Part shown: positions 11,340 to 60,100 of the stretch, piece by piece
Layout of the letters: each line of letters begins with the position of its first letter
Position numbering within the stretch: position 1 is the first letter of the stretch
NCBI RefSeq assembly: GCF_046119375.1
Contig: NW_027362761.1
Coordinates: 889,638,001-889,702,000 of the forward strand
Length of the DNA stretch: 64,000 bases
Source of the DNA: Phyllobates terribilis
Lineage: Eukaryota
Direction: 5' to 3'
Made by a program: the position numbers and the translations under genes
Notes under the pieces: model-generated
Seen by the model: only the letters and a program-made list of their open reading frames with translations
The model's database searches: none
Told to the model about the DNA's origin: nothing

Positions 11340-13410
11340 TCTAATGCAGCTTGAAAATAGCAATGACAGCCCATCCAACATCAGCTCACACTTCTCGGTG
11401 GTGCTTCGACACACAAAGATCTTTCTTTGCGTCTTGAATTTCATGACTACAGAGTTGGGAAATGGCCTGATCTGCAATGTATTTTGAGAAATAGTGTGCA
11501 TAAGCAAAGCCACAGTTTAGGCCACTGAAGGTCATCATTAAGCAAAACTCATACAGCTTTCCCACAGACTGAAAGAAGGATATCAAGACTTCCAAGACAG
11601 CCAACATTTCCCTATCCTCACCATGAGGACCACTGTCCATGTTAGCCTCCTGCTCATTATCACCCAATCTGCATTGAGATGAGATGAGGCTGGTCTGTGT
11701 AGCATCATCCTGTATAGTTCCTTGCTCCGCCTGCAATGCTTCCTCTTTAATTGTGAGCAGCGAGCATTTCAGTAGATAGAGAAGTGGGATGGTGATGCTA
11801 ATTATGGCGTTATCACCACTCACCATCTTGGTGGAGTCCTCAAAGTTTTGGAGGACAACACAGATGTCTGACATCTATGCCCACTCATCAGAAGTTATGT
11901 GCAAAGGCTGACCTGAATTCCAACTGGCGTGTTGAAGCTGGTACTCAACAACTGTGCTCTGCTGGTCACAAATCATTCCCAACATCTGCAACATTGGTTT
12001 TCCAATGTGTGGTCACATCACACACCAGTCGGTGAGCTGGAAGCTGAAAATGCTGCTGAAGCACTGCCAAGGTGGCAGAAGCTGTAGCTGATTTTATGAA
12101 ATGAGCATCTGGGTAGGTTTTGAGAAACCGCTGAACCATTAAGTTGAGCACATTTAGTGCTCTCTCATTACTAGTGTGTACCCCTGTATGGAGAACAATA
12201 ATAGCACCAAAGAATTAAAAGATAAAAGGTAGCCTGCTTTATATACCACGGTACTAAGAAAAACAATTTTGATTATATCATGTGTACCCCTGTGACAACA
12301 ATATGTGCACCAAAGAATTATTTTCAATAGAGTAGAACTAGTATAATGGGGATCGACAACTCTTCCACTACAGCCAACCCAGTAGATGGGACAAAACCAG
12401 GAGTGTTCGCATTTCAAAAAATTAGAGCCTGACACCACCGTTTCTGTGGCCAACAGATTGGAGATGGCGGAGTTCAATCTCTTAGCTTTGTCATGTGTAG
12501 GAGGAAACAATCTTTTACGTGTCCTCAACTACAGGACCGAGGGATGGCTGCAGCACTGAGAGAGGGCGGAGTACGGTGAACCGGACAAACTGCAGGACCG
12601 TGAGTGAGGTGCAGGTGGAGATGTTACAGTGGATTGAGAAACATGTGGTGCGCTCGGTAAAACAAACACAGCAGGCATGTTTGCTTCTATTACAGCTGAC
12701 AGGCTCCCACTCAGCCTGACTGGAGCAGGGAAAGAACTGGAGGTTCGCAGGTCGGAGACCTGTGTGACAATGCTTGGCACGATAACAGAGAAGGAGGAAG
12801 AAGCAGCAGATGTGTTTGATGGGGCGGCTGATGGTTGTTGAGGTCCACTGGTCCGCATTTTATCGTAGAGAGATTGCTAGTGTAAAGCATGTTGATTGCG
12901 TATGTGAAGGTTCCTGCATGTAGTAGTCAAATTATTGGACTTTTTCCCTCTACTGAGTTTTTTCTTGCAAAGTTTGCAGATAACGTGAGTTGGCTTATCC
13001 TTTGCGGTCTCAAAAAAGGCCCAGGCTAGGCAATCCTTGCTGCCCCTGCGTGCTGCAGACCCATGACCACTGCTGGCCACAGCCACAGTTGTGGCTAAGG
13101 ATGCAGTGCTCATCGCGAATGCATCACTCCGTGGCTGCGAGGTAGCATGCAACATAACCTCCTTGTCTTCTTCCTCCTTCAACTCCTCAGATTAGCTACT
13201 CAGCTGTGTGCCTCTGGGTTAACACCAAGTGGGATCCCCAACCTCATCATCATCCAATGTGTTATCCCATTCCACGCCTTGAGAGTCACCCTCCTCCTCT
13301 TCTTGCCCTGACAGCACAATAAAGTCCGTGTGACCCTCAGGTATCTGAGTCTCATCAGGATCACTTCCCACCAGGGGTTAACGTCTGGTGACGTGTGTCC
13401 GGAAGCTGCT
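11340..13410 (-). pseudogene. hAT transposase fragments (acidic N-terminus, BED finger, catalytic core)
   Basis: LAWAFF..CKLCKKKLSRG..LHIRNQH; KAKRLNSAISNLLATE; HRLVCDVTTHW; [21 protein letters not shown]. Confidence 0.85.
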
Positions 13411-13559
13411 CGGACCCAACTTTTTTCTTACCTGTATGAAGAAAAGTATTTAACACAAAGAATTTGATGCTGAGATGTAGTCTGCTTGATATACCAATTT
13501 TGAGTTTATCATGTCTGTGTACCCATGTGTGTAGAACAACATCTGCCGCAAAGAATTCA

Positions 13560-14600
13560 TTTCAGTAGCGTAGAACTATTATAATGGGGACCGACACCTC
13601 CCCCACTACAGCCAACTAAGCAGATGGAGACACAATCAGGAAAGTTAACATTTAAAAAAATTAGAGCCTAACACCACCAAAGTGGCATCAATTTCATTAG
13701 AGTAGAAGAAGTATAATGGGGACCGACACTTCTTCCACTACAGCTAACCCTGCAGATGGAAACTCAATCAGAAGTGTTCACATTTAAAACAATTAGGGCC
13801 TAACACCACCAAAGTGACATCAATTTCACTATCGTAGAAATAGTATAATGTAGACCAAAACCTCTTCCACTACAGCCAGCCCAGCGGATGGAAACTCAAT
13901 CAGGAGTGTTCACATTTTAAAAAATTAGGGCCTAGCACCAAAAAAGTGGCATCAATTTTACTAGACTAGAAGTAGTATAATCGGGAACGACACTTCTTCA
14001 ACTACAGCCAGCCCAGCAGATGGAGACACAATCAGGAGTGTTCACGTTTGAAAAAAATAGGGCCTATGACCATCAAAGTGGCATCAATTTCATTAAAGTA
14101 GAAGTATAATGTAGACCAAAACCTCTTCTACTACAGCCAACCCAGCAGATGGAGACTCAATCAGGAATGTTCACATTTAAAATAATTAGGGCCTAACACC
14201 AACAAAGTGGCATCAATTTCATCAGAGTAGAAGTAGCATAATGGGGACTGACAACTCTTCCACTACAGCCAACCCAGTAGACGGAGACCCAATCAGGAGT
14301 ATTCACATTTAAAAAATTAGGGCCTAACACCTCCTTTTCCCTGGCCAACATATTGGGGATGGTGGAATTCAATCTTTTAGCTTTGCCATGTGTTGGATGA
14401 AACAATCTTTTACGTGACCACAACTACGGGACCGAGGGTGGGCTGCAGTGCTGAGAGAGGGTGGAGTACTTTGAACAGGACAAACTGCATCAATTTCACT
14501 AGAGTAGAAGTAGTATAATGGAGACCAAAACCTCTTCCACTACAGCCAATCCAGCAGATGGAGACACAATCAGGACTGTTCACATTTTAAAAAAATTGTG
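13560..14600. repeat. 132-bp tandem array (about 6 contiguous units plus displaced units near 12320-12440 and 14480-14600)
   Basis: The ATAATG anchor recurs at 13581, 13713, 13845 and 13977. Confidence 0.9.
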
Positions 14601-14706
14601 TTAACAACTGCAGCAGCAGCAAGAGCAGGCACAGAAGCCACGCTAAAGAAATCACAGACTGCAATTACGCGAGATCAATGCAGCACACTAAATACTACAA
14701 CATCGC

Positions 14707-15629
14707 CTAGTGTGTACAGTCTGTGATTGGGGTGCAAAAGTCCTTGGAGATCCATGACTTGTTCATCTTGATGAAAGTTAGGCAGCCTACACTTTGTGGG
14801 GACAGCCGGCTGCGCTTATCTGTCAGGACACCATCAGCAGTGCTGAAGACACGTTCTGAGAGAATGCTGGCTGCCGGGCATGATAAAACCTCCAAGGCGT
14901 GACAGGCAAGCTCAGGCCACTCATCCATTTTTGAAGACCAAAATGTCAAAGGGTCCATACCCTCCCTTATGGTATTGATATTGAGTTCTAGATACTTCTG
15001 CACCATCCTCCCCAATTGTTCATCATGTGTTAGACTTGTACTCTTTTTAGCTGATGCACGAGCTGGTCTAAAAAATGTGTGAAAGGACTCACAGAAATTG
15101 CTTCTGTCACTTACATTGCTGCTGCTGCTAATATTTTGGCGTTGACAAATTGACGTGCCGAGGTTAGAAGTGTAGAGCTGCTATGCACACTGTGTGCCTC
15201 ACTGCTATCTTGGGGGACACCTATCTTAAGGTTGTGCAAAAGCTTGTTTCGGTACTCCAGCATTCACGGGTCCCTTTCCAGGGCAGGAAGCATCTGGTAA
15301 AATTTACTCTTATAAAGTGGATGTAACAGAGTGGCAACCCAGTAGTCAGCACTATTTTGAATCATAACTATACGGGAATCATGTTGTAGATAGTGCAGCA
15401 ATAAGACACTCATATGTTTGGCTCTTCCATGAGTTTCAAGCACGTGCTGTGTTGGTGGCTGGGTAACTCTGATGATTGTTTTCTCCGTCCCCTCCCGCCA
15501 AACATGAACAGAGAGGAGATGATTATCCTCTTCCTCCTCCATTTGTTCTTTGCCTCTGGCACCTTCACTAACAGTTTGTCTGGCATCACCAACCCCCCTC
15601 GATTGCGTTGACCCACTCTCCCTTGGCAC
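14707..15629 (-). pseudogene. hAT transposase C-terminal fragments including the dimerisation domain
   Basis: DYWVATLLHP.YKSKF and FWSSKMDEWPELA..LSCPAASILSERVFS..LTFIKMNKSW. Confidence 0.85.
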
Positions 15630-16563
15630 CCTGAGATGTCCCCTACTTTATGACATTAGTAACAGAAGAAAGTATTTTTTAGTGTGGATGACTCCTGTAT
15701 AACATAGCAGATATGCTCCAAACTATTTCAAACTGAGATGTCCCCTGCTGTATAACTATAAAAAAGGTCAAAGTTGCCTCCTAAATTGCTAAGAGTGATT
15801 GCTCTAAGACATTGAAACTGCATTACTGCAATAGAAACATAAGAAAGCATTACAAAATGTACACATGGAATATTTAAAAAAAAAATTCTGTAATATTAAT
15901 ATAAAAAATTACAGTAAAGGAAAGCACTTAGCGCATAGATTGGCCAATATATGTGTGCCCAACAGCCAACATCAAGGCGTCTTTCATTGTTAGGTCCCTG
16001 TCCTTCTCTGCCACCTCTCTTGGGATGAAATGTAAGCCTATAGTTTATGGGTAGTGTTGAGCCACCCCCGTAGTGTTCGAGTTCGGTTCGGTTCGTCGAA
16101 CACCCGTGTGTTCGCCGAACTGTTCGTCGAACTGTTCGTCGAACACCTTCGAACACCGTTAAAACCAATGGCAGGCAAACAAAAACACATAGAAACACAT
16201 AGAAAACACCTTCAAAGGTGTCCAAAAGCTGACAAACTGCTCAGAAGACACAACTAACACATGGAAAAGTGACAAGTACATATAGTCATGCGAAAAGAAA
16301 AGAGGTGGAGGAGTAAAAGGAGGGGGAGACACAGATATAGGCATGTCATGCCCTTCTAAAATCCAAAAAGTGAGAAGCCGAGACGGCCAGTCCGCTCCTG
16401 CCCGTGCCACCTCCGTGTCGCCGGGTTTGTGCCAGAGCCGCGGTGAACCCTGACGGCCAGCCCCCCTCTCCCAATACTGGTGCCTGTCCGCTGGTGGGTC
16501 GAGAGAGCCCCCCTGTGGTGGAGGCAGCTCTAAGCTTTTTAATTTAAATTGTCCCTCTAATTT

Positions 16564-16822
16564 GAATGAATACACTTTAAATCCATTTACAAGGATCTAT
16601 TGGAGGGCAAGTCTCATGCCAGCAGCCGCGTAATTCCAGCTCCAGTAGCGTCCACTAAAGCTGCTGCAGTTAAAAAGCTTTTATAAGGATCGAGCTCGGC
16701 TGTCCACCGCAAGGCATCCTAGTGCCAGTCCCAGCCCCTATGCCTTGGGGTGCCTCCTGATGCTCTTCACTAAGTATCCCGTGGTCCCGAAGCATTTCCT
16801 TTGAAAAAATTAAGTGTCCAAA
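16564..16822 (+). pseudogene. Diverged 18S rRNA gene fragment (530-loop/V4 region) inside the hAT
   Basis: CACTTTAAATCC..ATTGGAGGGCAAGTCT..GCCAGCAGCCGCG(-)TAATTCCAGCTCC..GCTGCAGTTAAAAAGCT..GATGCTCTT..CCCGAAGC..TTTGAAAAAATTA are collinear with vertebrate 18S. One G is missing from the universal GCGGTAA. Confidence 0.9.
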
Positions 16823-16924
16823 CTACAGGTGGTGTAGCTTGCTTAACAGCCGGGATAATCCGCTGACTAGCAGACACTGCTACTAGGCACAAAGTATTTC
16901 CTGGGCTAGATGCAGTTAAAAATT

Positions 16925-18750
16925 TGTAAGTAGATACTCTCATTGGATGCTGAGAAAGCATTCCATAGAGTCTCCTGGCACGCCATATATGATTCTCTTA
17001 AAAAGCTTGGGGTAGGGGTCTAGGGGACCCTTTTATAGCCAAAATCACGGCCCTGTATCACAATACGTCACCTAGGCTGAAGATAAATGGAACTGTAGCA
17101 CCGAGGGCTCGGTTGCTACAGACGTATTGCACCTCACCCAGAGGTGTGATATCTCACTCTCAGATAAGGATGGAGTGTGGATCAGGACCCGACACCTGCA
17201 TGCATTACACCACATTGCCGTGGGGCAGGGCGACCAATATGCCCCTGAGATGGGCACGACAGTCCCTGTCCCTGGCTGGAGTGGGGGGAGGGAACACTGA
17301 GGAAGGGGAACCCTGCAGTGCAGGAGCAGGGAGGAAGCAGTTCCTGGGTGCATTGAGAAGGGAGTATAAAAGGTGGGCACCATCTTAGTTCAGTGCAGAG
17401 AAGTCTGAGCAGAAGTGGCAGGGAGCAGGGGCTCTGCATGAGCTCTGCTCCGGAGGCGGGCCTAGTAACAGAGGCCCAGGCCTGCAAGAGGGAGAAGGAA
17501 GGAAGAGGAGCGGAGAAGGCTCCAGGAATAAGGAATGAAGGGATCCCAAGGGTGCGGACGGGCGAGTCGCCACCGCACGCCCGAATCCACCTGCGTGGAG
17601 GGGTCAGGCCAAAGGGGGAGACCGGTCCCCGAACTAGTGGAGGCAGGAAACGACCCTCAGCTAGAAACCGGAGGCTCTGACATTTTATGTGGCGCAGCCC
17701 CTTGCTCCACCCGCTAGGAAGGCACCACATAGGGTCAGGGAAACTGGCGCCAAGTTTACCAAGAGGAGGCCCGAGGCAGCCGGACAGAAGTGTTGGTAAG
17801 AAAGGCCAGACAAAGGACACACAAAGGGGGTCCTGTGAAGCGCTCCAAAGTTATCTGGGAGTTGTCTGAGCCCCTCACCTGGTGAGCACAGTACGACGTG
17901 GGCAGCCGTTACCTGCAGACGTGGTCTGGATAATAAGAACTGTGAGTAAAGGCCCTGAACTGCATCACTGACTCCGTGTCGTTACTGCTGCTGCCCTGCA
18001 CCATCACCCCCATCCTCCGCATACACTGCCCTGAGGCTATACTCCTCCCGTGGGGAGTTATGCTACGCTCTGCTGCACCCACAACACCAGCCTTAGCGGT
18101 CTGCCCTGTAGCGGCGGTTCACTCTGACCGCAATCCACGGGTGGCGTAGTCGGACATTTAAACATCAAAACCACATAAATAGTTCCGCCACTGGTTTGAC
18201 CGCCCTGAGCCACGGAACCGGATCGCCGCCACGAAGACTACAACCACCAGCATCCACCAAAAAGGGTCCGGCTCCGGGTGTCCCAAGGCCCAGGGGGTGC
18301 GTCAGAACATTTTCATCACCTTTCACAATCACCAATGGGACAAGGCAGGGATGTCCTCTGTCCCCTCTCTTATACATCCTAGTGACAGAGCACCTGCTCT
18401 CATCAATTCGCCATAACCCCAATATTAGGTGGATTGAGGTGGGAGGCACCGAGTACAAGTGCTCTCTATTTGCTGATGATGTCCTAGTATATATCACTCA
18501 ATCACATATATCCATCCCTGCTGTTATGGCTGAAATAGATCACTTTGTTACATGGTAAAATTTTAAAATCAATGCAGCGAAGTCTGAGGCCCTCGATGTC
18601 TCCCTCCCTAAATCCATATAGGATTCCATCCAGTCCAACTTTCCCTTTGCCTGGCCCTCACAGGGTATCAAATACTTAGGAATTCCTATTCATAGAGACC
18701 TCTCCCATCTATGTTATCTTAATTTTGGGCCCTTTATTGAACAATTCCAT
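16925..18750 (+). mobile_element. L1-clade RT fragment, split by a solo LTR
   Basis: ILSLDAEKAF..W (16925-16970); LYHNTSPRLKING|TFSSPFTITNGTRQGCPLSPLLY..LFADD..IKYLGI reads continuously across 17094-18308. Confidence 0.85.
17094..18304 (+). mobile_element. Solo LTR (1211 bp)
   Basis: TGTAGCACC...GGTGCGTCA termini; 4-bp TSD GAAC (17090-17093, 18305-18308); TATAAAA near 17366. Strand is inferred from the TATA only. Confidence 0.85.
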
Positions 18751-18826
18751 ACAGACCACGGTTGGCAAGTTAGAACTGTAAGATTCACTACGTGAACCAC
18801 TGGTGTTTTGTGGAAAAGCACATGTA

Positions 18827-20197
18827 CACCGCGTTCCAAATTATTATGCAAAAAGTGTTTAGGAGTGATAAGGGAAGAATTTGTTTGTTTGTCAGTTAAA
18901 CTCATTGATGGTGATGTGTGTCAGGGCTCTTTATATCACTGTAAGCAATTGCAGACACCTGTGCTAATTAGTTTGGCAGGTGTGTCCAATGAAAGGCAAG
19001 ACTACTTAAGAAGGCTCTCTCACATTATTAAGCAGCCTACATTTTCTGCCAAAATGGGAAAGAAAAAGGATGTGTCGGCTGCTGAGAAGCAACAAATTGT
19101 GGAGTGTTTAGGTCAAGGCATGACTACAATCAACATTGTGCGATGATCAGGATGAAGTGTCTTGGCAATCAAGAAGTATGTAGCTGATTCACAGTACACA
19201 CGTGTGCGTGCTGATAAGGGCAAATTGAGGACTCTTTCCTACAGGCAATTACGTCAGGTTGAAAGAGCAGCGGCAAAAAAGCCTTGTCATAGCAGCAGAC
19301 AAGTTTTTGAAGCTGCTTGTGCCTCCAACGTCCCCCGAACAACAAGATGCAGGGTCCTTCAGAGGTTTGCAGCTGTGCATACGCCATCCTGTCGACCTCC
19401 TCTATCTACTTCACACAAGCAGAAACGGCTCCAGTGGGCCAAACATTACATGAAGACTGATTTCAAAACTGTTTTGTTCACGGATGAGTGCCGTGCAGCG
19501 CTCGATGGTCCAGATGAATGGAGTGGAGGATGGCTGGTTGATGGACACCCCACGCAAACACGGCTACAGCGCCAACAAGGAGGAGGTGGAGTAATGTTTT
19601 GGGCTGGAATCATGGGGAGAGAGATTGTCGGCCCCTTTAGGATCCCTGAAGGCGCTAAAGATGAACTCCATAATGTATGTGGATTTTCTCAAACAGCACT
19701 TCCTGCCATGGTTCAAGAAGAAGAACCGTGTATTTCACAGCAAGATCATTTTTCTGCATGATAATGCACCATCTCATGCTGCACATAAAACATCTGCATC
19801 TCTGGCTGATATGGGCATAAAAGGGGACAAACTTATGGTGTGACCCCCATGCTCCCCTGACCTCTACCCCATTCAGAACCTTTGGAGCAACATTAAAAGG
19901 AGTGTCTATGATGGCGGGAGGCAGTTCACATCTAAGCAACAGCTCTGGGAGGGTATTCTGTCCTCATGCAAAACAATTGAAGCAGAAACCATCCAAAACC
20001 TGACAAATTCAATGGACGAGAGAGTTCAGAAGCTCCTTTCGAACAAGGGGTCCTATGTGAAAATGTAACATCACCTAGAATAAAGTTTTGAGTTGAAAAC
20101 TGTTTGATTTCAGTTTCTAACAACCTGCTAATGCTTATAATTTCAAAAATGACCATTTTTTTGGTCTTTATTAAAATGAAAAGGTTGATCGAAAAGT
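18827..20197 (+). mobile_element. Tc1 element, frameshifted, right end deleted
   Basis: TA|CACCGCGTTCCAAATTATTATGC terminus; MGKKKDVS.., LFTDECR, FLHDNAPSH and SPDLYPIQNLW motifs spread over several frames. Confidence 0.85.
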
Positions 20198-20525
20198 TTG
20201 GGGGATCTAAGAGTGTGGCAACCCAGTAGTCATGATTACTTCGAATTCTGACAATATGAGGGTCATGCTGCAGGTAGTGCAGCAAGAAGGCACTTATGTG
20301 TCTTGCGCATCTCGGAGCCCCAAAATTATTTTCCGGGCTAGATGCAGCTAAAAATTATTTTTAATTTTAAATCTGGTGAAGCTTATTATAGATGGCCTAA
20401 TAGGATCAGTGCTGCACACTGCTACAAAGCCCAAATTATTTTCCAGTCAAGATACAGATAAACATGATTAGTAATTTGAAAGCTTAAAACGGTTGGTAGG
20501 GTGATTTTAACCAATCATCAAGCTT

Positions 20526-23500
20526 TTACTCTCCCCAGGATGACACAGGGGTAGAAAAGTCGTTTCGGATCCATGATTTGTTCATCTTTATGAACGTGAG
20601 TCTGTCTACATTATCAGTGGAGAGCCGCGTGCGCTTATCTGTCAGCACACCACCAGCAGCGCTGAACACACGTTCAGACAGAACGCTGGCTGCGGGGCAT
20701 GACAAGATCTCCAAGGCGTAAGTGGCTAGCTCCGGCCATTTATCCAGATTGGAAGCCCAAAAAGAGCAAGGGTCCAGTGACACAGTCGTGGCTTCAATGT
20801 TTACTTGGAGATACTCCTGTACCATCGTCTCTAGGCGTTGACTATGTGTCAGACTTCTTGTCTCCTGTGGCCTTGCAAAGGATGGGCTAAAAAAGTGGTG
20901 AAATGATTCCGCAAAATTGATGTTACCAGCAGATACTGTGGTTCTGTTACGGTTTGAGTGTTGAACACTTGACGGTCCCACGGTTGGCAAGTTGGAACTG
21001 TGAGATTCACTACGTGCACCACTGGTATTTTGTGGAAAAGCACATGTAAGATTCTGCAACAGTCTCTGCTGATACTCCTGCATGCGTGCATCCCTTTCTA
21101 TGGCAGGAATAATTTCTGCAAATTTACTTTTGTACCGGGGATCTAACAGTGTGGCAACCCAGTAGTCAGGATTATTTCTAATTCTCACAATTCGAGGGTC
21201 ATGTTGCAGGTAGTGCAGCAAGAAGGCACTCATGTGTGTTGCGCATCCAGGAGCACCAAGTCCCTGTTGTGTTGGTGGCGAGGTAACAATCATGCTTCCT
21301 TCCTCTGTCCTCTCCCCCCAACCTCGCACAACAGAAATGTGATCAAGGTCTCCCTCATCTGATGAGTCTTCCATCAGTTCGTCCTCCACTTCTTCCTGGG
21401 CTCCTGCACCTTCCTCACTAGTTTGGCTGCTACCATGCGCCCTGGTTAAACCATCTCCCCCACCCTCACATGCCTGCCGCCTTGGTGCTGCCGACCGTCT
21501 GGACCTTGCAGATGTTAGCCCTTCCGCATACAACTCCTCCTCCTCTACTTCCTCCACCTCCTCTTGTGCCACCACCTGACTCCGAATTCTGTTTAACATG
21601 TGCTCCAGCATGTAAATCACCGGAATAGTCATGCTGATAATGGCATCGTCAGCACTAAACATCTTCGTCGCCATTTCAAAACTGTGCAGAAGGGTGCATA
21701 GGTCCCTGATCTGAGACCACTCCTCCAGCGTGATTTGCCCCACCTCTGAATCTCGTTGGCCCAGGCTATACGTCAGAACGTATTGCACCAGGGCTTGTCG
21801 GTGCTGCCACAGTCGCTGCAACATGTGCAGAGTTGAATTCCACCGGGTAGGCACATCGCATTTTAGCCGGTGAAGTGGCAGGCCCAACGACTTCTGTAGA
21901 GATGTAAGTCGCTGAGCTGCGGGATGCGAACGGCGGAAGTGAGCACACAGCGACCGTGCCCTCTGCAGAAGGCCATCTAGTCTGGGATAGTGGGCTAAAA
22001 ATTGCTGGACAACCAGGTTCAACACGTGAGCCATACAAGGCACGTGTGTGACATTGCCCCGGCGAAGGGCAGCACCCAGGTTTGCAGCATTGTCGCACAC
22101 GGCCTTCCCTGGTTTCAGGTCCAGTGGAGACAACCATTCATGAAATTGGTTCTCCAGAGCTGACCACAACTCCTCAGCTGTGTGACTCACATTTCCCAGA
22201 CATTTCAATGTAAAAACCGCCTGATGACGTTGAGCCCTACTGCCAGCATAGTAAGGAGGTGTGCAGGATCCCTTCTGCGCAGTTAGAAAGCTTGTGGCAT
22301 GACCAGACAGGCTTTGGGTGCAGGTGGAAGACCGAGAGGAGGTTGAGGAGGCAGAAGCAGTGGAGGAAAAATGACATAAAGAGGATTGACGCACAACTCG
22401 TGGGGACGGCAAGACTTGGACAGCAGCCCCTTGTCCTGCTGTCACCATAGTTACCCAGTGCCCAGTCAGCGACATGTAACGCCCCTGTCCATGCCTACTC
22501 GTCCAAGTGTCTGTGGTGAAATGCACCCTGTCACACACAGAGTTTCTCAAAGAAGCGGTGATGTTGTGTGCGACATGCTGGTGGAGCGCAGGCACACCTT
22601 TCTTTGAGAAGTAGTGCCGACTGGGCATCTGGTACTGGGGCACTGCGACGGACATAAGGTCTCGAAAATCCTCTGTGTCCACCAGGCGGAAAGGCAGCAT
22701 TAATGTAGCCAAGAGCTTGCAGATGGTGAAATTCAACCTCTTAGCTTTCTCATGGCTAGGAGGAAATGGTCTTTTACTTGTCCACATCTGAGGGACCGAG
22801 GGCTGGCTATTGTGCTTAGACGGGGTTGATAAGGGTGTCCCCGGCAAACTGCCGGTCTGTGAGGAAGATGCAGGCGGACATGTTAGGTTGCCTTGATCCA
22901 AAGGTGGTGCTATCGATGTCGGACAGCGCTCAAGACCAGCTGGTGTTACCACCTCCAAAGAAAATGATGACCTGCCAATCACGCTGGCTGTTGCGGGTAA
23001 AGAGGTGGCAGGTCTGCGCCCCAAAACAGGTGTGACTGCTGTCCTCCCAGTCACAGAGGATGAAGAGGCTGCGGATGCACAAGATATGGCAGACGGTGGT
23101 TGGCCCGGCCGGCTAGACCGCATTGTAGCACACTGAGCTTCCCACTGCAACTTATGCTTCATGTCCATGTGCCGGTTCATGCATGAAGTACTCAAACTAT
23201 GTATTTTTTGGCCTCTACTTAGCTTTTGCTGACAAATGTTACAGATAACACGAGTTGGGTCATCTTTATCGATCTGAAAAAATGCCCAGGCTATGCAAGG
23301 CTTAGCACCCATGCGACCTGAAGAGCCACCACGACTTGTGGTGAGAGGCAGAGTTGTGTTTGAGGATGCAGTTGTTGACGTGCTTCCAGTACTACGTCTC
23401 TGTCCATGAAGGCGCAACCTGACCTCGTCGTCACTAGCATCTTCCTCCACCTCCTCTGCTGACCTCATCTCTTGGCTGACTGTGGGTTGACAGTAAGTGG

Positions 23501-24206
23501 GATCTCCGACCTCATCATCATCACCCTGTGCGTTATCACACCCGTCGTCCTCAGAGCCAACCTGTTCCTGCCCTGACAAAAAACTAAAGTTGTCGCTCCA
23601 ATCAGGTATTTGAGTCTTATCATCGTCTTCCTCATTGTCTCCACCAACAGGAGTTACAGTTTGGGAATGAGGGTCTACATTATGGTCAGAACCTTCTGCG
23701 TCTGGTCCTGGATCCGACTCATAAAGATTCTGGGCATCAGTGCAGATCATTTCCTCGTCTGGATTCACAGAAGCGCTGGAGTCGACCTCTGATTCCCAGG
23801 CTATAGTATGAGTAAACAGCTCTGCAGACTCAACCATCTGTTCTACCTCATACTCAGACGGGCAGCTGGAGATTTGGGAGCTGTGAGGAAGCAAGTGCGA
23901 TTTGGGTGAGACCTTTGAGGACTGGAGTATTTGTGATGTTGAAGTTGATGTGGAGGAGAGCCCACTTAAAGGAGCACTTGATATCCGTTGAAGCACCTGC
24001 TGTTTTTGTGCCTCATCTGGAATTTGTAGCGATTGGCGTGTCCGTAAGAAAGGGATCTTATCACATTGTCCGCTAAAAGAAGTAGACATTTTAGTTTGGC
24101 TGGAAGATGGTCTTTCTTCTGCACCTACCCCACGGACACAACCTTTTTTCCCCTTCCCAACACGCCTATTCCCCTTTCCACCAGCAGCAGGCCTTTTTCC
24201 ACTCAT
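20526..24206 (-). CDS. Intact hAT-family transposase with BED zinc finger, 1226 aa
   Basis: Uninterrupted ORF with basic N-terminus, BED WAFF..CNIC..HMDMKH, FTTDTWTS (D), VCDNAAN (D), CMAH, TRWNST, SERVFS (E) and a C-terminal dimerisation domain. Confidence 0.95.
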   Translation of the reverse strand: MSGKRPAAGGKGNRRVGKGKKGCVRGVGAEERPSSSQTKMSTSFSGQCDKIPFLRTRQSLQIPDEAQKQQVLQRISSAPLSGLSSTSTSTSQILQSSKVSPKSHLLPHSSQISSCPSEYEVEQMVESAELFTHTIAWESEVDSSASVNPDEEMICTDAQNLYESDPGPDAEGSDHNVDPHSQTVTPVGGDNEEDDDKTQIPDWSDNFSFLSGQEQVGSEDDGCDNAQGDDDEVGDPTYCQPTVSQEMRSAEEVEEDASDDEVRLRLHGQRRSTGSTSTTASSNTTLPLTTSRGGSSGRMGAKPCIAWAFFQIDKDDPTRVICNICQQKLSRGQKIHSLSTSCMNRHMDMKHKLQWEAQCATMRSSRPGQPPSAISCASAASSSSVTGRTAVTPVLGRRPATSLPATASVIGRSSFSLEVVTPAGLERCPTSIAPPLDQGNLTCPPASSSQTGSLPGTPLSTPSKHNSQPSVPQMWTSKRPFPPSHEKAKRLNFTICKLLATLMLPFRLVDTEDFRDLMSVAVPQYQMPSRHYFSKKGVPALHQHVAHNITASLRNSVCDRVHFTTDTWTSRHGQGRYMSLTGHWVTMVTAGQGAAVQVLPSPRVVRQSSLCHFSSTASASSTSSRSSTCTQSLSGHATSFLTAQKGSCTPPYYAGSRAQRHQAVFTLKCLGNVSHTAEELWSALENQFHEWLSPLDLKPGKAVCDNAANLGAALRRGNVTHVPCMAHVLNLVVQQFLAHYPRLDGLLQRARSLCAHFRRSHPAAQRLTSLQKSLGLPLHRLKCDVPTRWNSTLHMLQRLWQHRQALVQYVLTYSLGQRDSEVGQITLEEWSQIRDLCTLLHSFEMATKMFSADDAIISMTIPVIYMLEHMLNRIRSQVVAQEEVEEVEEEELYAEGLTSARSRRSAAPRRQACEGGGDGLTRAHGSSQTSEEGAGAQEEVEDELMEDSSDEGDLDHISVVRGWGERTEEGSMIVTSPPTQQGLGAPGCATHMSAFLLHYLQHDPRIVRIRNNPDYWVATLLDPRYKSKFAEIIPAIERDARMQEYQQRLLQNLTCAFPQNTSGARSESHSSNLPTVGPSSVQHSNRNRTTVSAGNINFAESFHHFFSPSFARPQETRSLTHSQRLETMVQEYLQVNIEATTVSLDPCSFWASNLDKWPELATYALEILSCPAASVLSERVFSAAGGVLTDKRTRLSTDNVDRLTFIKMNKSWIRNDFSTPVSSWGE

Positions 24207-24330
24207 TTTGGTGGTTAACTAATTCACAACTCTGGAGTTGTTTGCACAAAAAAACAATGGATGGTAACCGAGCAGAGCTGAGTGGCCAAACTGTGGTATT
24301 AGGCCAAAACTATTGGCTGGGTTAGATGCA

Positions 24331-26479
24331 GAAAAAAATTATTTTTAATTTGCAACCTGATGGAGGTCAGTATAGATGGACTAATAGACCAAGTCCCACA
24401 CACCGCTAGAAGCCCAAATATTTTTTCAGAGCTAGATGCAGAAAATTTTTTTATTCAATTTGCAACCTGATGGAGGTCAGTATAGATGGACTAATAGACC
24501 AAGTCACACACACTGCTAGAAGCCCAAATATTTTTTCAGAGCTAGATGCAGAAAAAAATTATTTTTAATTTGCAACCTGATGGAGGTCAGTATAGATGGA
24601 CTAATAGACCAAGTCCCACACACTGCTAGAAGCCCAAATATTTTTTCAGAGCTAGATGCAGAAAAAAATTATTTTTAATTTGCAACCTGATGGAGGTCAG
24701 TATAGATGGACTAATAGACCAAGTCCCACACACTTCTAGAAGCCCAAATATTTTTTCAGAGCTAGATGCAGAAAAAAATTATTTTTAATTTGCAACCTGA
24801 TGGAGGTCAGTATAGATGGACTAATAGACCAAGTCCCACACACCGCTAGAAGCCCAAATATTTTTTCAGAGCTAGATGCAGAAAAAAATTATATTCAATT
24901 TGCAGCCTGCTGGACGTCAGTATAGAAGGACTAATAGAACAAGTCCCACACACTGCTAGAAGCCCAAATATTTTTTCAGAGCTAAATGAAGAAAAAAATT
25001 ATTTTTAATTTGCAACCTGATGGAGGTCAGTATAGATGGACTAATAGACCAAGTGCCACACACTGCTAGAAGCCCAAATATTTTTTCAGAGCTAGATGCA
25101 GAAAAAAATTATTTTTAATTTGCAACCTGATGGAGGTCAGTATAGATGGACTAATAGACCAAGTCCCACACACCGCTAGAAGCCCAAATATTTTTTCAGA
25201 GCTAGATGCAGAAAATTTTTTTATTCAATTTGCAACCTGATGGAGGTCAGTATAGATGGACTAATAGACCAAGTCCCACACACTGCTAGAAGCCCAAATA
25301 TTTTTTCAGAGCTAGATGCAGAAAAAAATTATTTTTAATTTGCAACCTGATGGAGGTCAGTATAGATGGACTAATAGACCAAGTCCCACACACTGCTAGA
25401 AGCCCAAATATTTTTTCAGAGCTAGATGCAGAAAAAAATTATTTTTAATTTGCAACCTGATGGAGGTCAGTATAGATGGACTAATAGACCAAGTCCCACA
25501 CACCGCTAGAAGCCCAAATATTTTTTCAGAGCTAGATGCAGAAAAAAATTATATTCAATTTGCAACCTGCTGGAAGTCAGTATAGAAGGACTAATAGAAC
25601 AAGTCCCACACACTGCTAGAAGCCCAAATATTTTTTCAGAGCTAAATGAAGAAAAAAATTATTTTTAATTTGCAACCTGATGGAGGTCAGTATAGATGGA
25701 CTAATAGACCAAGTCCCACACACTGCTAGAAGCCCAAATATTTTTTCAGAGCTAGATGCAGAAAAAAATTATTTGTAATTTGCAACCTGATGGAGGTCAG
25801 TATAGATGGACTAATAGACCAAGTCCCACACACCGCTAGAAGCCCAAATATTTTTTCAGAGCTAGATGCAGAAATTTTTTTTATTCAATTTGCAACCTGA
25901 TGGAGGTCAGTATAGATGGACTAATAGACCAAGTCCCACACACTGCTAGAAGCCCAAATATTTTTTCAGAGCTAGATGCAGAAAAAAATTATTTTTAATT
26001 TGCAACCTGATGGAGGTCAGTATAGATGGACTAATAGACCAAGTCCCACACACTGCTAGAAGCCCAAATATTTTTTCAGAGCTAGATGCAGAAAAAAATT
26101 ATTTTTAATTTGCAACCTGATGGAGGTCAGTATAGATGGACTAATAGAACAAGTCCCACACGCTGCTAGAAGCCCAAATATTTTTTCAGAGATAAATGAA
26201 GAAAAAAATTATTTTTAATTTGCAACCTGATGGAGGTCAGTATAGATGGACTAATAGACCAAGTCCCACACACTGCTAGAAGCCCAAATATTTTTTCAGA
26301 GCTAGATGCAGAAAAAAATTATTTTTAATTTGCAACCTGATGGAGGTCAGTATAGATGGACTAATAGACCAAGTCCCACACACCGCTAGAAGCCCAAATA
26401 TTTTTTCAGAGCTAGATGCAGAAAAAAATTATATTCAGTTTGCAACCTGATGGAGGTCAGTATAGATGGACTAATAGAA
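24331..26479. repeat. 110-bp satellite, about 19.5 near-identical units, just upstream of the transposase ATG
   Basis: Exact 110-bp period of GAAAAAAATTATTTTTAATTTGCAACCTGATGGAGGTCAG...GCTAGATGCA. Confidence 0.97.
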
Positions 26480-26949
26480 TGATGCTATGCCCAAAAGATT
26501 TTACTTCACTAAGTGCAGTAAAAAAATTGGTATTCTATACACAGGTGGTATATCTTGCAACACAGATAGGCTACTCCACTGACTAACACACTCTGCAATA
26601 GGCCAAAAAGGATTAGCTTTGCTAGATTCAGCCAAATGCTGTGAAAAAAACTTGCACAGCACTGGCACAGACCTGCCTGGCAAAAACTGATAGGAACTGA
26701 TGTAACCTAGTCCTGAAAAGGACTCCAATTACAATTAGTCTTTACTCCCACAATCTATCTATTTAAGAGCACAGACCTGCCTGATAAAAGTCGTAGGAAA
26801 TGCTGTAACCTAGTCCTTAAAAGGACTGCAATCACAACTATTCCCTGCTCCCAAGCTATCTGTATATTTGTGCGAAAATTGGCTTGAAATTAACAAGGTA
26901 TAGCGCACACAGCAACAGCGGTGCCGTCTAACACGAAGCTGCAGCAGTG

Positions 26950-27020
26950 AGAAAATGGTGGCGACGGGGAAAATGGCTTGGTCTTATAGGGCAAGGACAT
27001 GTGACATACACTGCCAATCA
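26950..27020 (-). promoter_or_regulatory. Putative hAT transposase promoter (CCAAT / TATA-like / YY1-like)
   Basis: CCAAT 27014-27018, minus-strand CTATAAG 26983-26989 and AAAATGGC 26970-26977. The same order occurs in the element at 33145-33200. Confidence 0.45.
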
Positions 27021-27439
27021 CACATGCCCTTGCTTGTGTGAAAAAAAGCACTTCGCTCCGTGTGTGCGCTGCTGATAGGCTGACAGATTGCACCTCCCCA
27101 CTGCAAATGCGGGAAAGAGAAAAAAAAATGGAGATCTTCATTGTTCCTGCAGAGATCCATCCCCTGCCCCTCCCCCCGCCCCGCTGTACACTCAAACTGC
27201 GTATTAACATTAATTTTCATCATTACTGAGAAAAAATCCAGTTATGATTTTGGTGCACGAACAGTTATCGAACATAACCTCGAACAGCCGAATTTTTCTC
27301 AAATTGTTCATGTTCACCGACCGGCTCGAACACCGCCCAAAACAGCTCGAATTTGAGATTGGCGAACAGTTCGAGTAGAACAACGCTCATCTCTATTTAT
27401 GGGTCAGGACTGAACCAGCTAACTACTTAAAATCACCAG

Positions 27440-28826
<1,387 letters not shown>

Positions 28827-31516
28827 CATATATATATATATATATATATCAGAGCTAGAAAGGCAGTCTATGTGGCAGACTGCAGTGCATACATCACAAG
28901 AGGCTCCATTCTAGTTCTGTCTGTTCCTGCTGTTACAGATATTTCTTAAAATAGCCCCAGGTATCAGGGGCCAGGGATAATTATTTATTTTATCTTAATT
29001 CTGATTATTTGCATATAAAGCAATCCAGAGAACACCGTTTTTCTGCTCCATTTGCTTGTTTCCACAGCAGAATACAGACAGATTCTTTCCATATTACAGC
29101 GATAAAAATCCAGAAATTTGTAGTGAATGTGGAAAATATTGGCCTCTATTTAAATTTTGTTGCAGTGTGTTAGTGAAGTTATTGACACGAGGTCGCTGTG
29201 AAAAAAAGTAACCTACAGGCCAGCTATTTAAAAATGTGGTTTACCACCACACGTATCATATATAAGTGTGCTCCAAATTCAGGCATTTCAGGCCTCCATT
29301 TAAATTTTGTTGCAGTGTGTCAGTGAAATTATTGACACAAGGTCGCTGTGAAAAATAGTAAACAATTGCTAGAAAGTCCGGAGGAGGACCTGGGTGCGGA
29401 AGTGGAAGACGAGGTGGTGGATGATATAGTAACTGACCCAACCTAGCAGGGGGACATGCAGAGCGAGGACAGCAGCACACAGGGGGAGGGAGGCGCAGAA
29501 CCACAACAGGCAGGAAGAAGCAGTGTGGTGGCTGCAGACACAAGGAAAGAATGCGTTCCTCGTAACGCCAACATGACAAAAGTTGCCAGTATAACTGTTA
29601 GGTCTTCCCTAGTCTGGTTGTTTTTTAAAGACTCATTTGATAAACCCAAAAAGGCCATTTACACCACCTGCCAGGCCAGCATTAGCAGGGATAGCAAAAC
29701 TACCAGCCCGACCACCACCAGCATGATCAGGCACATGGCAGTAAAGCACCAGACTAAGTGGGCCGACCCCCAGGGTCCAGCAAAACTGTCTGCGGGTGAC
29801 ACCACTGCTTGTTCCTCTGTTGTGCGTGCATGCCAATCCCCTATCCATGGCGCATGCCAAGATGCCTCCCACCCTGCACCTGTCATTGAACACTCTCAAC
29901 TAGCACCATCAGCAAGCACGTCCATGTCCTTTTCCCAGTGCAGCGTTTAGTTGTCCCTACCCCAGTCCTTGGAACGCAAGCGCAAATATCCACCTAACGT
30001 CCCACAGGCCAAACTACGAAATTCACACATTTCGTGAATGCTTGTGCTCGAAATGTTGCCTTGTAGGCTCGTGGAGACAAAAGGTTTCCGCAACCTGATG
30101 GAGCCGGCCATCCCTCGGTACACGGTCCCAAGCCGCCACTATTTCTCCCTGTGTGCCATTCCTGCATTACACGAGCACGTGTTCCACAACATTAGCCGTG
30201 CCCTCAACTATGCAGTTACTGGGAAAGTCCACCTAACTACAGAAATGTGGACAAGTACTTGTGGGCAGGGACGGTACATCTCGCTGACGGCATGCTGGGA
30301 TAACATAGTGGAAGCCGGGACCCAGTCAGACCTTGGGATGGAACATGTCCTCCAGACGCCGAGGATTGCGGGCCCTGGGTCAATCAGGGTTGCCCCCACA
30401 TTCTACAGCTCCTGCAACTCATCCTCCTCGTCCTCCACTTCAGCCTCCATCTCCGAAATTACCACATCAGTCACAAGCTGGAAGCACTGCAGCACTGCCA
30501 ATCGGCAACAGGCTATGCTGAAGCTAATATGCTTAGTTGACAAATCATACAATACTGAAGAGTAGGCAGATCTGTGGCTGACACCGTTGAAACTTTAGCC
30601 AGGTATGGTCGTGTGTGACAATGGCCGGAACCTGGTGGAAGCTCTGAGTCGAGGCGAGCTCACACACGTACCATGACTGACCCATGTGCTTAATCTCGTG
30701 GTTCAGCAGTTTTTCAAAACCTACCTGGATCTGTCGGATCTGCTTGTCAAAGTACGCCACCTGTGTGCCCATTTTAGAAAGTCAGCTACACCTTCCACCG
30801 CCCTTGCCGTGCTTCAGCAATGTTTGCAGCTTCCAGCTCACTGACTGATCTGTGATGGTCCCACGTGTTGGAACTCTACATTGCAGATGTTGGGAAGGAT
30901 TTGTGAGCAGAAGAGGGCAGTTCTTGACTACCAGCATCAACAAGGGCGTCGGTATTCAGGTCAGACTTCACATATAAAACCTCAGGAGTGGACATGGATG
31001 TCAGACATATGTACCATCCTCCAAAACTTTGAGGACTCCACCTAGATGGTGTGCGGCGATGACGCCATAATTAGCGTCACCATCCCCCTTCTCTGTCTTC
31101 TGAAACGCTCTTTGCTCTCAATTAAAGAGGATGCATTGCAGGCGGAGCACGATGAGATGGAGCAAGGAACCATACAAGGTGATTATACACAGCCCAGCCT
31201 CATCTCATCCCAACGTGGATTGGGTGACAATGAGGAAGAGTAGGAGGAGGAGAAAGAAGAACAGGAGCTAGTTTTCTGCGCTATATACTACCTGCACAAC
31301 CGTCATACCGTCTGTTCAGCGTGGATAGCCTGAAGACAGGGAGTAGGAGGAAGAGAAGGAGGAGGAGAGCATGGTCAGTCGTCCTCTTGGTGAGAACACG
31401 GAAGTCTTGCCTCCTTGCAGTCTAAATCCAAAGGCGGTGAAAGTAGAGATATACGTCCGCGCCGCTGAAAGATCCTCAAGTCAGGAACATGTAATAATAT
31501 CCTTGTTTATTGGTAA

Positions 31517-31561
31517 ATGCCTACGCGTTTCTGGGTGTTCCACACCCCTTCATCAGGGCAC
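31517..31561 (-). ncRNA. Minimal type I hammerhead ribozyme
   Basis: GTGCC-CTGATGA-A-G-GGGTGT-GGA-ACACCC-A-GAAA-C-GC-G-T-A-GGCAT: both core boxes, stem I GTGCC/GGCAT, palindromic ACGCGT stem III, GUA triplet. Confidence 0.75.
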
Positions 31562-31906
31562 CAACAGATATATCAATGTATGCACTGAAACACTCCATTT
31601 ATATACAGACAGCAAATGAAAAAAAAGGGTTCAAAAAGGAAGAGCAGAAAAAAACCAAACATAACCTTTGCACCTGAGGCCGTGTGCAAAAGAGAGAGAA
31701 AAAAAAAAAAAAAAAGGGGGCAAAAAGATAATGTTGTACAGAAAAGTATAAATAATCAAAGGTATCAGTCAAATGGAGTAATTACATAAAAGCAATATTA
31801 CTTACTAACAAGGTTTTTTTCTGCTCTTCCTTTTTGAACCCTTTTTTTTCATTTGCTGTCTGTATATAAATGGAGTGTTTCAGTGCATACATTGATATAT
31901 CTGTTG

Positions 31907-31951
31907 GTGCCCTGATGAAGGGGTGTGGAACACCCAGAAATTCGTAGGCAT
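31907..31951 (+). ncRNA. Second hammerhead copy with a mutated stem III
   Basis: Same motif but GAAATTCGTA, so the ACGCGT palindrome is lost. Confidence 0.6.
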
Positions 31952-33144
31952 TTACCAATAAACAAGGATATTATCACATGTTCCTGACTTGAGGATCTTT
32001 CAGCGGCGCGGACGTATATCTCTACTTTCACCGCCTTTGGATTTATTCTGGTCCTGTGGGACACCCATTGGAGATCCGCTGCAGCTGCTTTTTATACGTT
32101 ATGGTGGTTGTGTCCTTACACAACCAAACCAGGTGAGCACCACCTTTTTATTTTTCATTCCTATGTCTACAGGTGAAACTCTATTGGTCTTTGCTCTCTC
32201 TCTCTCTTTGTATTTCTCTTTGCAGTCTGTCACACATGGCTCAGTTTATGTTATGCTGCCTTTCCCATGACCCTCGAGTCGTCCAAATTTTGGGTGACCG
32301 TCATTACTGGTTGGTGACGCTTCTAAACCCACATGGAACATGGTGAGGGAGTACCTTGCCGACCATACCAACATCCTCCGTGATTCCTCTGTGCCTTATA
32401 ATTATTGGGTATCCAAGCTGGACCCGTGGCATGAACTGGCTCTTTATGCCTTGTAGGTCCTGGCGTTTTGTCAGAGTGGGTTTTTAGTGCCACCGGTGGA
32501 ATTATTACCGATAGGTGCATCCGCCTGTCAACTGAAAATGCTGACAGGCTGACTCTTATAAAAATTAACAAGGGCTGGATTGGGCCAGACTTCTCAACAG
32601 CACCAAATGATAGCAGCGTAACATAAACTCAAATACAGTGTCTTTTTTTGGGGAGGTCTAACTCTCTTCCCATGCACCTCTGTCTTCACACCCAGACATT
32701 GGTATACTCTTCCTGATTTTGTATATATGCTCTTGTCCTCCTCCTTCTCCGCATTCTCATCCTCCACCACCATATCACCAACATATGTACCATATCAACA
32801 TATCTACGTCTCTTGCAGGGGGCATTGGAGTTCCTCCAAATTTTTGGCAGCCGTTGCTTCACTGCATAGGCAAACACTATGGGAGACCCACTTCCTATTT
32901 ATTTCTGTTAATGTTAATGATAATGGCTAGTGTTGAGCGAACATGCTTGACACTGCTCGGTACTCGCCCGAGCATCACGCTACTCGGGATGTTCGGCGAG
33001 CACCGAGCATTTCTGGGTTACTCGGGTGGGAGCTCGGGTCTCCACCCTGCATGTTTGGCGCTCTTTACAGAGCCAATGAACATGCAGGGATTGCCAGCCA
33101 GTCACTGTAATGCCGCAGCCATGTTGGTTGTGGGCATTACATTG

Positions 33145-33200
33145 ATTGGCTGGCCGCACAGCGTCACCTCGAGTATTTAAAACCGGGCGCCGCCATCTTG
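33145..33200 (+). promoter_or_regulatory. Putative hAT promoter (ATTGG, TATTTAAAA, CGCCATCTTG)
   Basis: Motifs at 33145-33149, 33174-33182 and 33191-33200. Confidence 0.5.
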
Positions 33201-33499
33201 GACACAGACGGCTGGGATCAGACAGTGTAGGGACAGCGCTGCTGATTTAGGGAGAGATATATACTCCGAAATAGTTAGTGTAGGGTCTGTAAAGGCTGCC
33301 AGATCAAACAAACTATCCTTCTCAGGACTAATATCCATCCCAGATATCAGGCAGGCAGGCAGGCTGTATAGGAGACGCAGTGGTTATACCAGCAAAATGC
33401 TGCAATACAGTCCTGTGTGCTCCTGTTGCTGAAATTGCTGCACATAGCTCCAGGTCTCGGGGGCCAGGAAAAATCCTTTTTTTTTCATCTAAATCCTCT

Positions 33500-38105: not shown

Positions 38106-39275
38106 TGTAACGGGTCTGGGAGGTGGAACCTCTGAGCAACTATACAAGGGGGCGGTCCTTGTAAGGAAGCGGGTGGCTCCCAGGGAAGACGGGCAGGTAT
38201 TCACGGCAAGTGACAGGGACAGTCTCTGGGTAGAAGGGCAGGTAGTCACGGCAAGTGACAGGGACAGCCTCTGGGTAGAAGGGCAGGTAGTCACGGCAAG
38301 TGACAGGGACAGTCTCTGGGTAGAAGGACAGCAGGCAGGTGGCTGGTGAGCGGGCGAGAGTCTCTGGACAGGCAGGTGGTCACGGCAAGTGACGGCTGAA
38401 CCTCCAGGTAGACTAGCAGACAGGTAGCAGGTGAATGCTCCCAGGTGAGCGGGTAAGAGTCTCTGGACAGGCAGGTGGTCACGGCAAGTGACGGCAGAGC
38501 CTCCAGGTAGACTAGCAGACAGGTAGCAGGTGGACGCTCCCAAGTGAGCGGGCAAGAGTCTCTGGACGGGCAGGTGGTCCCGGCAAGTGACGGCAGAGCC
38601 TCCAGGTAGGCTAGCAGACAGGTAGCAGGTGGACGCTCCCAGGTGAGTGGGCAAGAGTCTCTGGACGGGCAGGTGGTCACGGCAAGTGACGGCAGAGCCT
38701 CCAGGTAGGTTATCAGGCAGGTAGCAGGTGAGCGCTCCCAGGTGAGCGGGCAAAAGTCTCTGGACAGGCAGGAGGTCACGGCAAGTGACAGCAGAGCCTC
38801 CAGGTAGGCTAGCAGGCAGGTAGCAGGTGAGCGCTCCCAGGTGAGCGGGCAGGCTGGTCCATAGAAAGACTGACAGGTGTCGGAAGGCAGACCGTCGGAC
38901 CGCAGGCTTGCAAGCAGATAAGCGGATATCAGGCAGGTATCAAGCAGGAATCTGGCAGGTGACTGGCAGGTAACTGGTAACGGGACCTGAGGGCTGAAGC
39001 AGAGTGAAGGCTTTGCAACAACATTGCTCGGGCACCTCCATTTTGGAGGAGGTGCCTTATATATGGTGAAGTCCTCCGGCCATTGGCCGGGGACTCATTA
39101 TGACGGCGCGCGCGGCCCCTTTAAGAGAGGGGGAGAGCGCATGCGCGCCCTAAGCACCGTGGCCGGGAAGCAGCGCGCGCTGCCAGCAGAGCGGGAGGAA
39201 GACGCCGGGCACGGAGCGGAGAGGTGAGGGGAACAGCGTCCCTGCCTAGCAGGAGGCAGGGACGCCGATGCTTCA
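38106..39275 (-). repeat. 3' LTR (1170 bp) with three 45-bp and about five 99-bp internal repeats
   Basis: 99-bp anchor at 38457, 38556, 38655 and 38754. The 45-bp unit encodes TASDRDSLWVEGQVV on the plus strand. Confidence 0.92.
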
Positions 39276-43475: not shown

Positions 43476-43488
43476 GGCCCGAGCAAAC

Positions 43489-59978: not shown

Positions 59979-60100
59979 ATTTTTATTATTTAAATTGTTT
60001 TGTCTTTGTTCTTCCTTTCCACTTCCAGTAGCAGAGATCTCAATAGTATTTGTCAGCTGTATGGCTTTTTCTGGCCTTTTGCTTCCCTTCCCACATTGTT

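Follow-up and report, generated by a model that had tools for sequence, protein, structure and literature searches.

How does a single DNA transposon come to combine an intact transposase gene with heavily decayed DNA, and did it move with that DNA inside? The question is raised by an 11,344-bp hAT element at 16052-27395 of a 64,000-nucleotide stretch of the Phyllobates terribilis genome (assembly GCF_046119375.1, contig NW_027362761.1, positions 889,638,001 to 889,702,000 of the forward strand), hereafter the window. Its transposase gene lies on the minus strand and the decayed pieces (the cargo) are found in its 3' arm. As far as can be judged from sequence, the evidence suggests that the element is a young, autonomous hAT and belongs to an anuran lineage whose transposases are long. 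We give a probability of roughly 0.6 to the reading that the 11.3-kb composite transposed to its present site with the cargo already inside.

Ends and transposase gene

The element is flanked by identical 8-bp copies of TTTATGGG (16044-16051 and 27396-27403, unstranded), a target-site duplication (TSD) that would match by chance with a probability of 1.6e-5. Its termini, TAGTGTTGAGC and TAGAGATGAGC, agree at 9 of 11 positions and thus form imperfect terminal inverted repeats (TIRs) of 11 bp. These start with TAGTG and TAGAG, which fits the YARNG rule of hAT ends (PMC3014272). The 3' terminus (16052-16170, minus strand) consists of its TIR and a subterminal GTTCG/CGAAC array with 12 intact motifs, and one decayed-like word lies at the margin of the scanned 130 bp. 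The 5' terminus (27226-27395, minus strand) contains six intact and two decayed-like subterminal motifs and the other 11-bp TIR. At the threshold used, CGAA/TTCG clusters were confined across the window to the two bins holding the element ends. The sole other end trace in the window is a 47-bp stretch at 62464-62510 which is 96% identical to the 5' subterminal region. TSD, YARNG TIRs, subterminal motifs, transposase domains and a Hermes-like fold together place the element among the hATs. A macrotransposon with inner ends was considered and ruled out, as no further TIR of the same family was found inside the element. The right flank enters a Tc1 (frame 27522-28685) and the left flank was found to have no matching TIR; therefore that Tc1 was not the target of the hAT, and an attempt to date the insertion from its target site gave no age. 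The Tc1 itself (27522-28830) has a 387-amino-acid (aa) stop-to-stop frame with four Pfam hits, and no inverted copy of its right end was found in the window.

Between the two ends, as in an autonomous element, a transposase open reading frame (ORF) of 1,226 aa extends on the minus strand from an ATG at 24206 to a TAA at 20526 without an internal stop. An initial annotation of this DNA had described the ORF as intact with all DDE, CxxH and W motifs, and this was borne out: the catalytic and signature residues are D566 (assigned from the TTDTW motif at 564), D705, E1178, C724xxH727 and W789. Domesticated ZBED genes retain the DDE triad, so that intact catalytic residues are no proof of mobility (PMC3606216). 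Pfam matches were zf-BED at residues 310-356 and Dimer_Tnp_hAT at 1137-1211 (stop-to-stop numbering). The Hermes transposase (PDB 4d1q, 8edg) was the top sequence match (E 3e-19) and also the top match to the predicted fold of a 747-aa core (E 2e-13, target template modelling score ~0.7, mean predicted local distance difference test (pLDDT) 70.6). Hermes has 612 aa, whereas the protein described here has 1,226. Its surplus length consists of a 305-aa N-terminal arm and three low-complexity loops rich in S, T, P, E and D; loops with a pLDDT below 50 lie at ~608-649, 879-972 and 1061-1117. At conserved columns the transposase differs at 6 of 133, and its 22 relatives span 0-14%, which in this low-power test gives no excess.

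Relatives of the transposase were searched in a length range of 674-2,146 aa. The 39 strongest matches include 32 that are named, and all of these (32/32) are anuran. The closest partial relatives, 71-89% identical, come from Ranitomeya and Anomaloglossus; they are gene models of dendrobatoid frogs, either truncated or fused, with no full-length orthologues among them. Lengths of at least 1,000 aa were found in 10 of the 39, in two cases owing to extra domains. Frog relatives reach 1,036-1,144 aa, and P0003 (1,135 aa) and P0004 (1,144 aa) align with residues 4 to 1,222 of the transposase. A quick tree, built without Buster or Tip rows and without named active elements, contains a 21-row clade (SH-aLRT, an approximate likelihood-ratio test, 100) in which every named member is a frog; the transposase groups with frog sequences, apart from rows labelled ZBED1 or ZBED4. 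The element may belong to the Ac group, a label suggested by the "ZBED4/6-like" names of its relatives in databases and by a resemblance of its TIRs. The size of the element and the length of its protein had at first been called exceptional, a claim that did not hold up against a 9,773-bp neighbour, the relatives of 1,135 and 1,144 aa, and the hobo_AC elements of Anolis carolinensis, which measure 9-15 kb. Judged by these, 1,226 aa is at the upper end for the lineage, and size and protein length are unremarkable. No literature on an anuran hAT lineage with long transposases was found in a search with Repbase, Dfam, most subscription papers and supplements outside its scope.

Frog gene models P0009, P0019, P0020, P0187 and P0298 combine parts of proteins from this transposase lineage with other sequence. 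Such fused models carry extra Pfam domains or host-gene names, and P0298 matches over 98/454 aa. They are probably annotation chimeras rather than real fusions. Caution is warranted with frog gene models named "ZBED4/6-like", which are often transposases.

Upstream of the gene lies a tandem array of 19.6 units of 110 bp at 94% (24323-26478, plus strand), which agrees with the near-homogeneous satellite first described and has a loose higher-order period of 6-7 units. It is followed by a stretch (26483-26869, plus strand) that holds degenerate repeat units at 26483-26636 and a 103-bp repeat in two copies. About 1.6 further degenerate units lie just beyond the stop codon (20311-20484, plus strand; 134/172 identical to the array unit). 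Another degenerate 110-bp unit is found in the cargo arm (16804-16924, plus strand; 76/117 identical) and scores 53-54, where the maximum of 200 shuffles was 31.

Decayed cargo and two ages in one element

Next to the 3' terminus is a remainder of the 3' arm (16171-16545, unstranded) which has no self-match and ends GC-rich; in the GC-rich stretch (16366-16545) no Rfam family was found at its own score. Further inward is a decayed relic of 18S ribosomal RNA (16546-16824, plus strand), its right end set by eye against the Rfam consensus. The Rfam family SSU_rRNA_eukarya matches at 16532-16651 (63 bits, E 2e-14). A hand count gave 10 differences over 85 upper-case consensus positions, among them a deletion where conservation is highest, and the earlier description of a heavily diverged 18S piece is upheld. 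Beyond one repeat unit comes a fragment of a non-long-terminal-repeat (non-LTR) reverse transcriptase (RT) in two parts on the plus strand (Pfam RVT_1, E 6.7e-11), the first (16925-17093) with one frameshift and the second (18309-18755) with two stops and a missing 3' end. The two parts are split by a 1,211-bp insert (17094-18304, plus strand) with TG...CA ends and a 4-bp TSD, GAAC (17090-17093 and 18305-18308). Its reading as a solo LTR is based on these ends, the TSD and the lack of a Pfam match, and no second copy of it was found within the window. Of the "broken L1 split by a solo LTR" in the initial annotation, the RT piece and its interruption by such an insert are confirmed. The L1 label is our assumption from its motifs, by which we take the fragment to be L1/Tx1-like.

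The arm continues with two pieces of the coding sequence of the element's own family, both on the minus strand. Piece A (18756-18826) matches 20978-21048, about codons 1053-1076, with 4 of 71 bases different, and piece B (20201-20323) matches 21137-21259, about codons 983-1023, with 13 of 123 different. The diverged copy of its own coding sequence claimed for the element is thus present but totals only 194 bp, split by a Tc1 (18827-20200, plus strand; ORF 19054-20068) whose insertion site is a TA within the coding piece. The Tc1 is indeed frameshifted and truncated, with one stop, one frameshift and an inversion of ~33 nt in its ORF, and its 3' TIR is lost. The micro-inversion is at 19139-19171, and the residues absent there can be read on the opposite strand. 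Three cargo junctions are located in repeat units. Coding piece B meets its adjoining unit through apparent microhomology and the 18S relic overlaps the next unit through what looks like A-rich microhomology, both joins having been noted by eye. The term "Pack-type", which had been applied to the element, is apt for the ~0.3-kb 18S relic, the only captured host sequence that is not derived from transposable elements (TEs), and not for the remaining, TE-derived cargo.

Coding lesions number six in 1,817 bp of cargo and none in the 3,678 bp of the ORF (P=0.0013), a comparison which supports the earlier description of old, decayed cargo in an element with an intact ORF. Apparent decay looks to be ~4-12% in the cargo and ~0.5-1% or less in the body of the element. 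The ORF would stay open with a probability of 12-24% if neutral divergence were 0.5%, of 1.5-6% if it were 1% and of at most 0.3% if it were 2%. Singleton variants in the 110-bp array number 10 over 2,090 bp (0.5%), compared with 16/1,194 (1.3%) and 22/988 (2.2%) in arrays of a neighbouring hAT and 36/657 (5.5%) in an older relic; this clock was scored on four of seven arrays, each of 4-19 units, with unit numbers that differ. Between the cargo Tc1 and P0046, the nearest of its relatives to be full-length, 36 of 325 residues differ, a divergence that is an upper bound because the Tc1 relatives are from other organisms. The Tc1 also differs at 9 of 122 conserved columns, where its three nearest relatives differ at 1-4. 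The cargo is several-fold older than the time for which the ORF and array can have decayed freely, and it therefore did not decay alongside an unselected ORF. At the 3' end, the probability that none of the 12 intact motifs had decayed is 0.74 at 0.5% divergence, 0.03 at 5% and 0.0003 at 10%.

Two other signs of age were rejected. The perfect 8-bp TSD, correctly seen in the initial annotation, had been taken there as evidence of youth. However, the broken neighbouring hAT at 32928-49209 has a perfect TSD too, and a TSD pair remains identical with a probability of 0.44 at 5% divergence. The bulk observed/expected ratio of CpG is no clock either, being 0.52 in the ORF and also 0.52 in a relic with 8-9 stops.

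Between the own-coding pieces and the ORF there are nine synonymous and eight non-synonymous differences (pS 0.19, pN 0.054; P=0.009 against neutrality). When the eight non-synonymous sites were polarised, four were clearly derived in the pieces (at G987, M992, R1005 and A1064), two were derived in the ORF and two were ambiguous. The pieces are accordingly a dead sister copy, and the ORF lineage remained under selection. Purifying selection on the ORF lineage relative to the pieces is also what one would see if the ORF were a domesticated ZBED-like host gene, that is, an old fixed insertion with its ORF under host selection and its 3' region decayed, and databases do name its relatives "ZBED4/6-like". 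Domesticated ZBED genes would be recognised by single-copy orthologues in syntenic positions (PMC3606216). They are also expected to have lost their ends and TSD, and here both are present, with TIRs, TSD and subterminal motifs intact. The window is moreover a dense field of transposon relics: related hAT transposase pieces, many of them broken, were found at many positions (tblastn), and 25 frames scanned against Pfam gave transposon-type families only. With its nearest relatives being truncated or fused dendrobatoid models rather than full-length orthologues, and the transposase clustering with frog sequences apart from the ZBED1/ZBED4 rows of the quick tree, we regard domestication as highly improbable.

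Origin of the composite

From the 3' end inward, the arm starts with the terminus, and the 18S relic, a single repeat unit and the RT piece with its LTR come next; then there are codons 1076 to 983 in the gene's orientation with the Tc1 inside, and last the repeat units that follow the live stop. We infer that the 3' arm is probably, in large part, an old copy of the element's own family. A retroelement would have entered the 3' arm of this old copy, and the stretch from there to codon 1076 would have been lost. The old copy would next have received the Tc1 and then fused with the 3' untranslated region (UTR) of a young copy during double-strand-break repair, in one step or several, with microhomology at the satellite-like repeat units joining the two. 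The simplest cause of such a fusion, by which a young hAT would have taken old DNA into its 3' arm, is template switching in break repair or recombination between element copies. After capture the hAT would have transposed to the present site with the old DNA inside, as hobo_AC did. A transposase requires only two ends, so that the cargo rides along and decays, and selection on mobility would maintain the ends and the ORF. We infer that the jump was later than the capture, and that the time of the lineage before landing far exceeds the time after it.

Several points weigh against a jump with the cargo inside. No second copy with the cargo junctions was found inside the window, and the age clocks are rough, with four arrays scored and a Tc1 divergence that is an upper bound. 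At the 5' end two of eight motifs are decayed-like (P 0.015 at 0.5% divergence), unless these represent the family consensus. In a survey of animal Pack-TIRs by Tan et al., only 4 (1.4%) are multicopy, with a count of 3/23 for Xenopus tropicalis, and single-copy Pack-TIRs arise mostly through in-place gap filling, although the elements surveyed were for the most part old and short (PMC8277862). Gap filling could also have produced the composite here. A young element without cargo would have landed, a break in its 3' arm would have been repaired from an old family copy, and the composite would be single-copy and would never have jumped. This accounts equally well for old cargo in an element whose ends, ORF and array are young, and junction microhomology and a single copy are the rule among animal Pack-TIRs, according to the same source (PMC8277862). 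It needs, however, capture within the short time after landing (~0.5% divergence or less). In 57% of surveyed cases the donors of Pack-TIRs were within 15 kb (PMC8277862), yet no donor of the 18S, RT, LTR or Tc1 pieces was found in the 16 kb to the left or the 36 kb to the right. We therefore consider gap filling unlikely, but it is the alternative to be taken most seriously.

The motifs of the two ends bear on a further alternative, in which an old element was rewritten in place: its TSD would be old, and an active copy would lately have replaced the sequence of its 5' half and ORF, either through gene conversion or through a nested insertion combined with recombination. The two decayed-like motifs at the 5' end and the collinearity of the cargo with a dead copy would suit this, and so would the survival of TSD pairs noted above (P 0.44 at 5%), of which the broken neighbour gives an example. 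Yet the 3' end, which should then be old, has 12 motifs without decay (P 0.03 at 5%, 0.0003 at 10%), and this makes rewriting rather improbable. That the cargo junctions fall within repeat units could also mean that two loci were merged at repeats during assembly. The same 8-bp TSD at both ends (chance 1.6e-5) argues against such an artefact, as do the junction units, which are merely 65-78% identical to the array and too distinct to collapse; we give it next to no credence. The reading favoured here is thus that the composite arrived with its cargo.

Comparable systems and neighbouring elements

The idea of a large cargo-bearing hAT has already been published for a vertebrate. The hobo_AC elements of Anolis carolinensis are autonomous hATs of 9-15 kb that owe their length to genomic DNA taken up together with older TE fragments; replication of these elements was unimpaired, some copies are recombinant, and one structure is common to four elements (PMC3014272). 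At 11,344 bp with decayed TE pieces, the composite corresponds to this type in size and in older TE cargo. It further shares with hobo_AC an 8-bp TSD, 11-bp TIRs beginning with TAG and, presumably, inter-element recombination, and hobo_AC is likewise young, at 1.12% from its consensus (PMC3014272). The TIR of hobo-N7_AC, TAGGCTTGAGC, agrees with the 3' TIR described here at 9 of 11 positions, a likeness seen in a comparison of TIRs (PMC3014272). In contrast, the cargo structures of hobo_AC were proven to be replicated by multiple copies, whereas the present composite is known from one locus, and the 18S relic, the long internal tandem array and the 1,226-aa protein have no mention for hobo_AC in the text available (PMC3014272).

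Animal Pack-TIRs, among them Pack-hAT-N8_XT of Xenopus tropicalis, share with the element hAT ends around captured DNA, have microhomology at breakpoints of the kind that the joins here seem to show, and include multicopy cases in a frog (PMC8277862). They are mostly short, old elements with non-TE host sequence, unlike the present one, which encodes a transposase and carries mostly TE debris (PMC8277862). In maize, the Ac/Ds2/Ds-l fillers also have hAT ends with DNA from elsewhere, and Ac/Ds ends have moved up to 100 kb of nested retrotransposons (PMC3260210). Ds2 and Ds-l are non-autonomous, unlike this element, and Ac macrotransposons have inner ends, of which none is found here at the 20311-20323 junction (PMC3260210). 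FEDoR of Rana temporaria, likened here by its description only, is a DNA element of a frog that has TSDs and tandem arrays in its interior, but it is ~3.5 kb long, non-autonomous and without an ORF (PMC12054243). hATs in general are plentiful in amphibians, as two sources state (PMC11872487, PMC6278860).

Should the composite prove multicopy, it would be the amphibian counterpart of hobo_AC, and large frog genomes could grow through autonomous hATs that re-amplify dead TE and ribosomal DNA (rDNA) fragments, so that old-looking repeats inside such elements would misdate their activity. An intact transposase and ends that span 11 kb make the element a candidate gene-transfer tool. Current understanding is not overturned by it. 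A wider scenario can be drawn, in which a widespread frog hAT lineage with transposases of 1,000-1,200 aa and autonomous elements of 8-11 kb uses its repeat units as template-switch hubs that repeatedly load foreign DNA including rDNA, the composite being a multicopy subfamily, active at present, by which an 18S relic and the debris of other TEs are dispersed, and the transposase a natural vector for large cargo. We regard this as speculative, its chance of being right being well short of even. The Tx1/Tx2 composites of Xenopus likewise pair a DNA transposon that has internal tandem repeats with an inserted non-LTR element. Their retroelement is whole and site-specific, whereas the RT of the present element is a broken piece of 0.6 kb.

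Candidate expression signals were found in the element. An ATTAAA poly(A) signal candidate on the minus strand at 20365 lies ahead of the cargo fusion point, so that the cargo need not disturb the mRNA. Putative promoter-like words on the minus strand (26970-27018), which are consensus matches only, are ATTGG at 27018 and GCCATTTT at 26977. An acceptor-like stretch precedes the transposase ATG, although a search for the splice donor that a 5'-UTR intron around the array would need gave none.

A second large hAT, related to the first, lies at 32928-49209 (16,282 bp, or 9,773 bp without a nested Gypsy) with the perfect TSD ATAATGGC. Three frameshifts interrupt its transposase frame, which is free of stops where it was aligned. 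It contains 149/299-bp and 52-bp arrays, with arrays in both arms, and its 3' arm holds inverted, diverged hAT coding pieces and a 600-bp duplication (88%). The nested element is a chromodomain Ty3/Gypsy (38106-44609) within the hAT ORF, with a 5-bp TSD (CACGC) and broken frames, and there are 31 differences between its LTRs over 1,121 sites. At 12183-15578 a related hAT family has left an older relic. In it 132-bp units and coding fragments alternate, and one of the junctions between unit and coding sequence is duplicated; this is the same repeat-linked rearrangement as in the main element. Within a decayed hAT, an inverted repeat of ~235 bp (31418-32050) has arms that are 98-99% complementary and 155 bp apart. 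At 52350-54997 a tandem duplication of 1,325 bp has two mismatches and is either very recent or an assembly duplicate. Lastly, a non-LTR retrotransposon on the minus strand (57189-61114) encodes an endonuclease and an RT besides its GDSL/SGNH-like ORF1; a stop separates the endonuclease frame from that of the RT.

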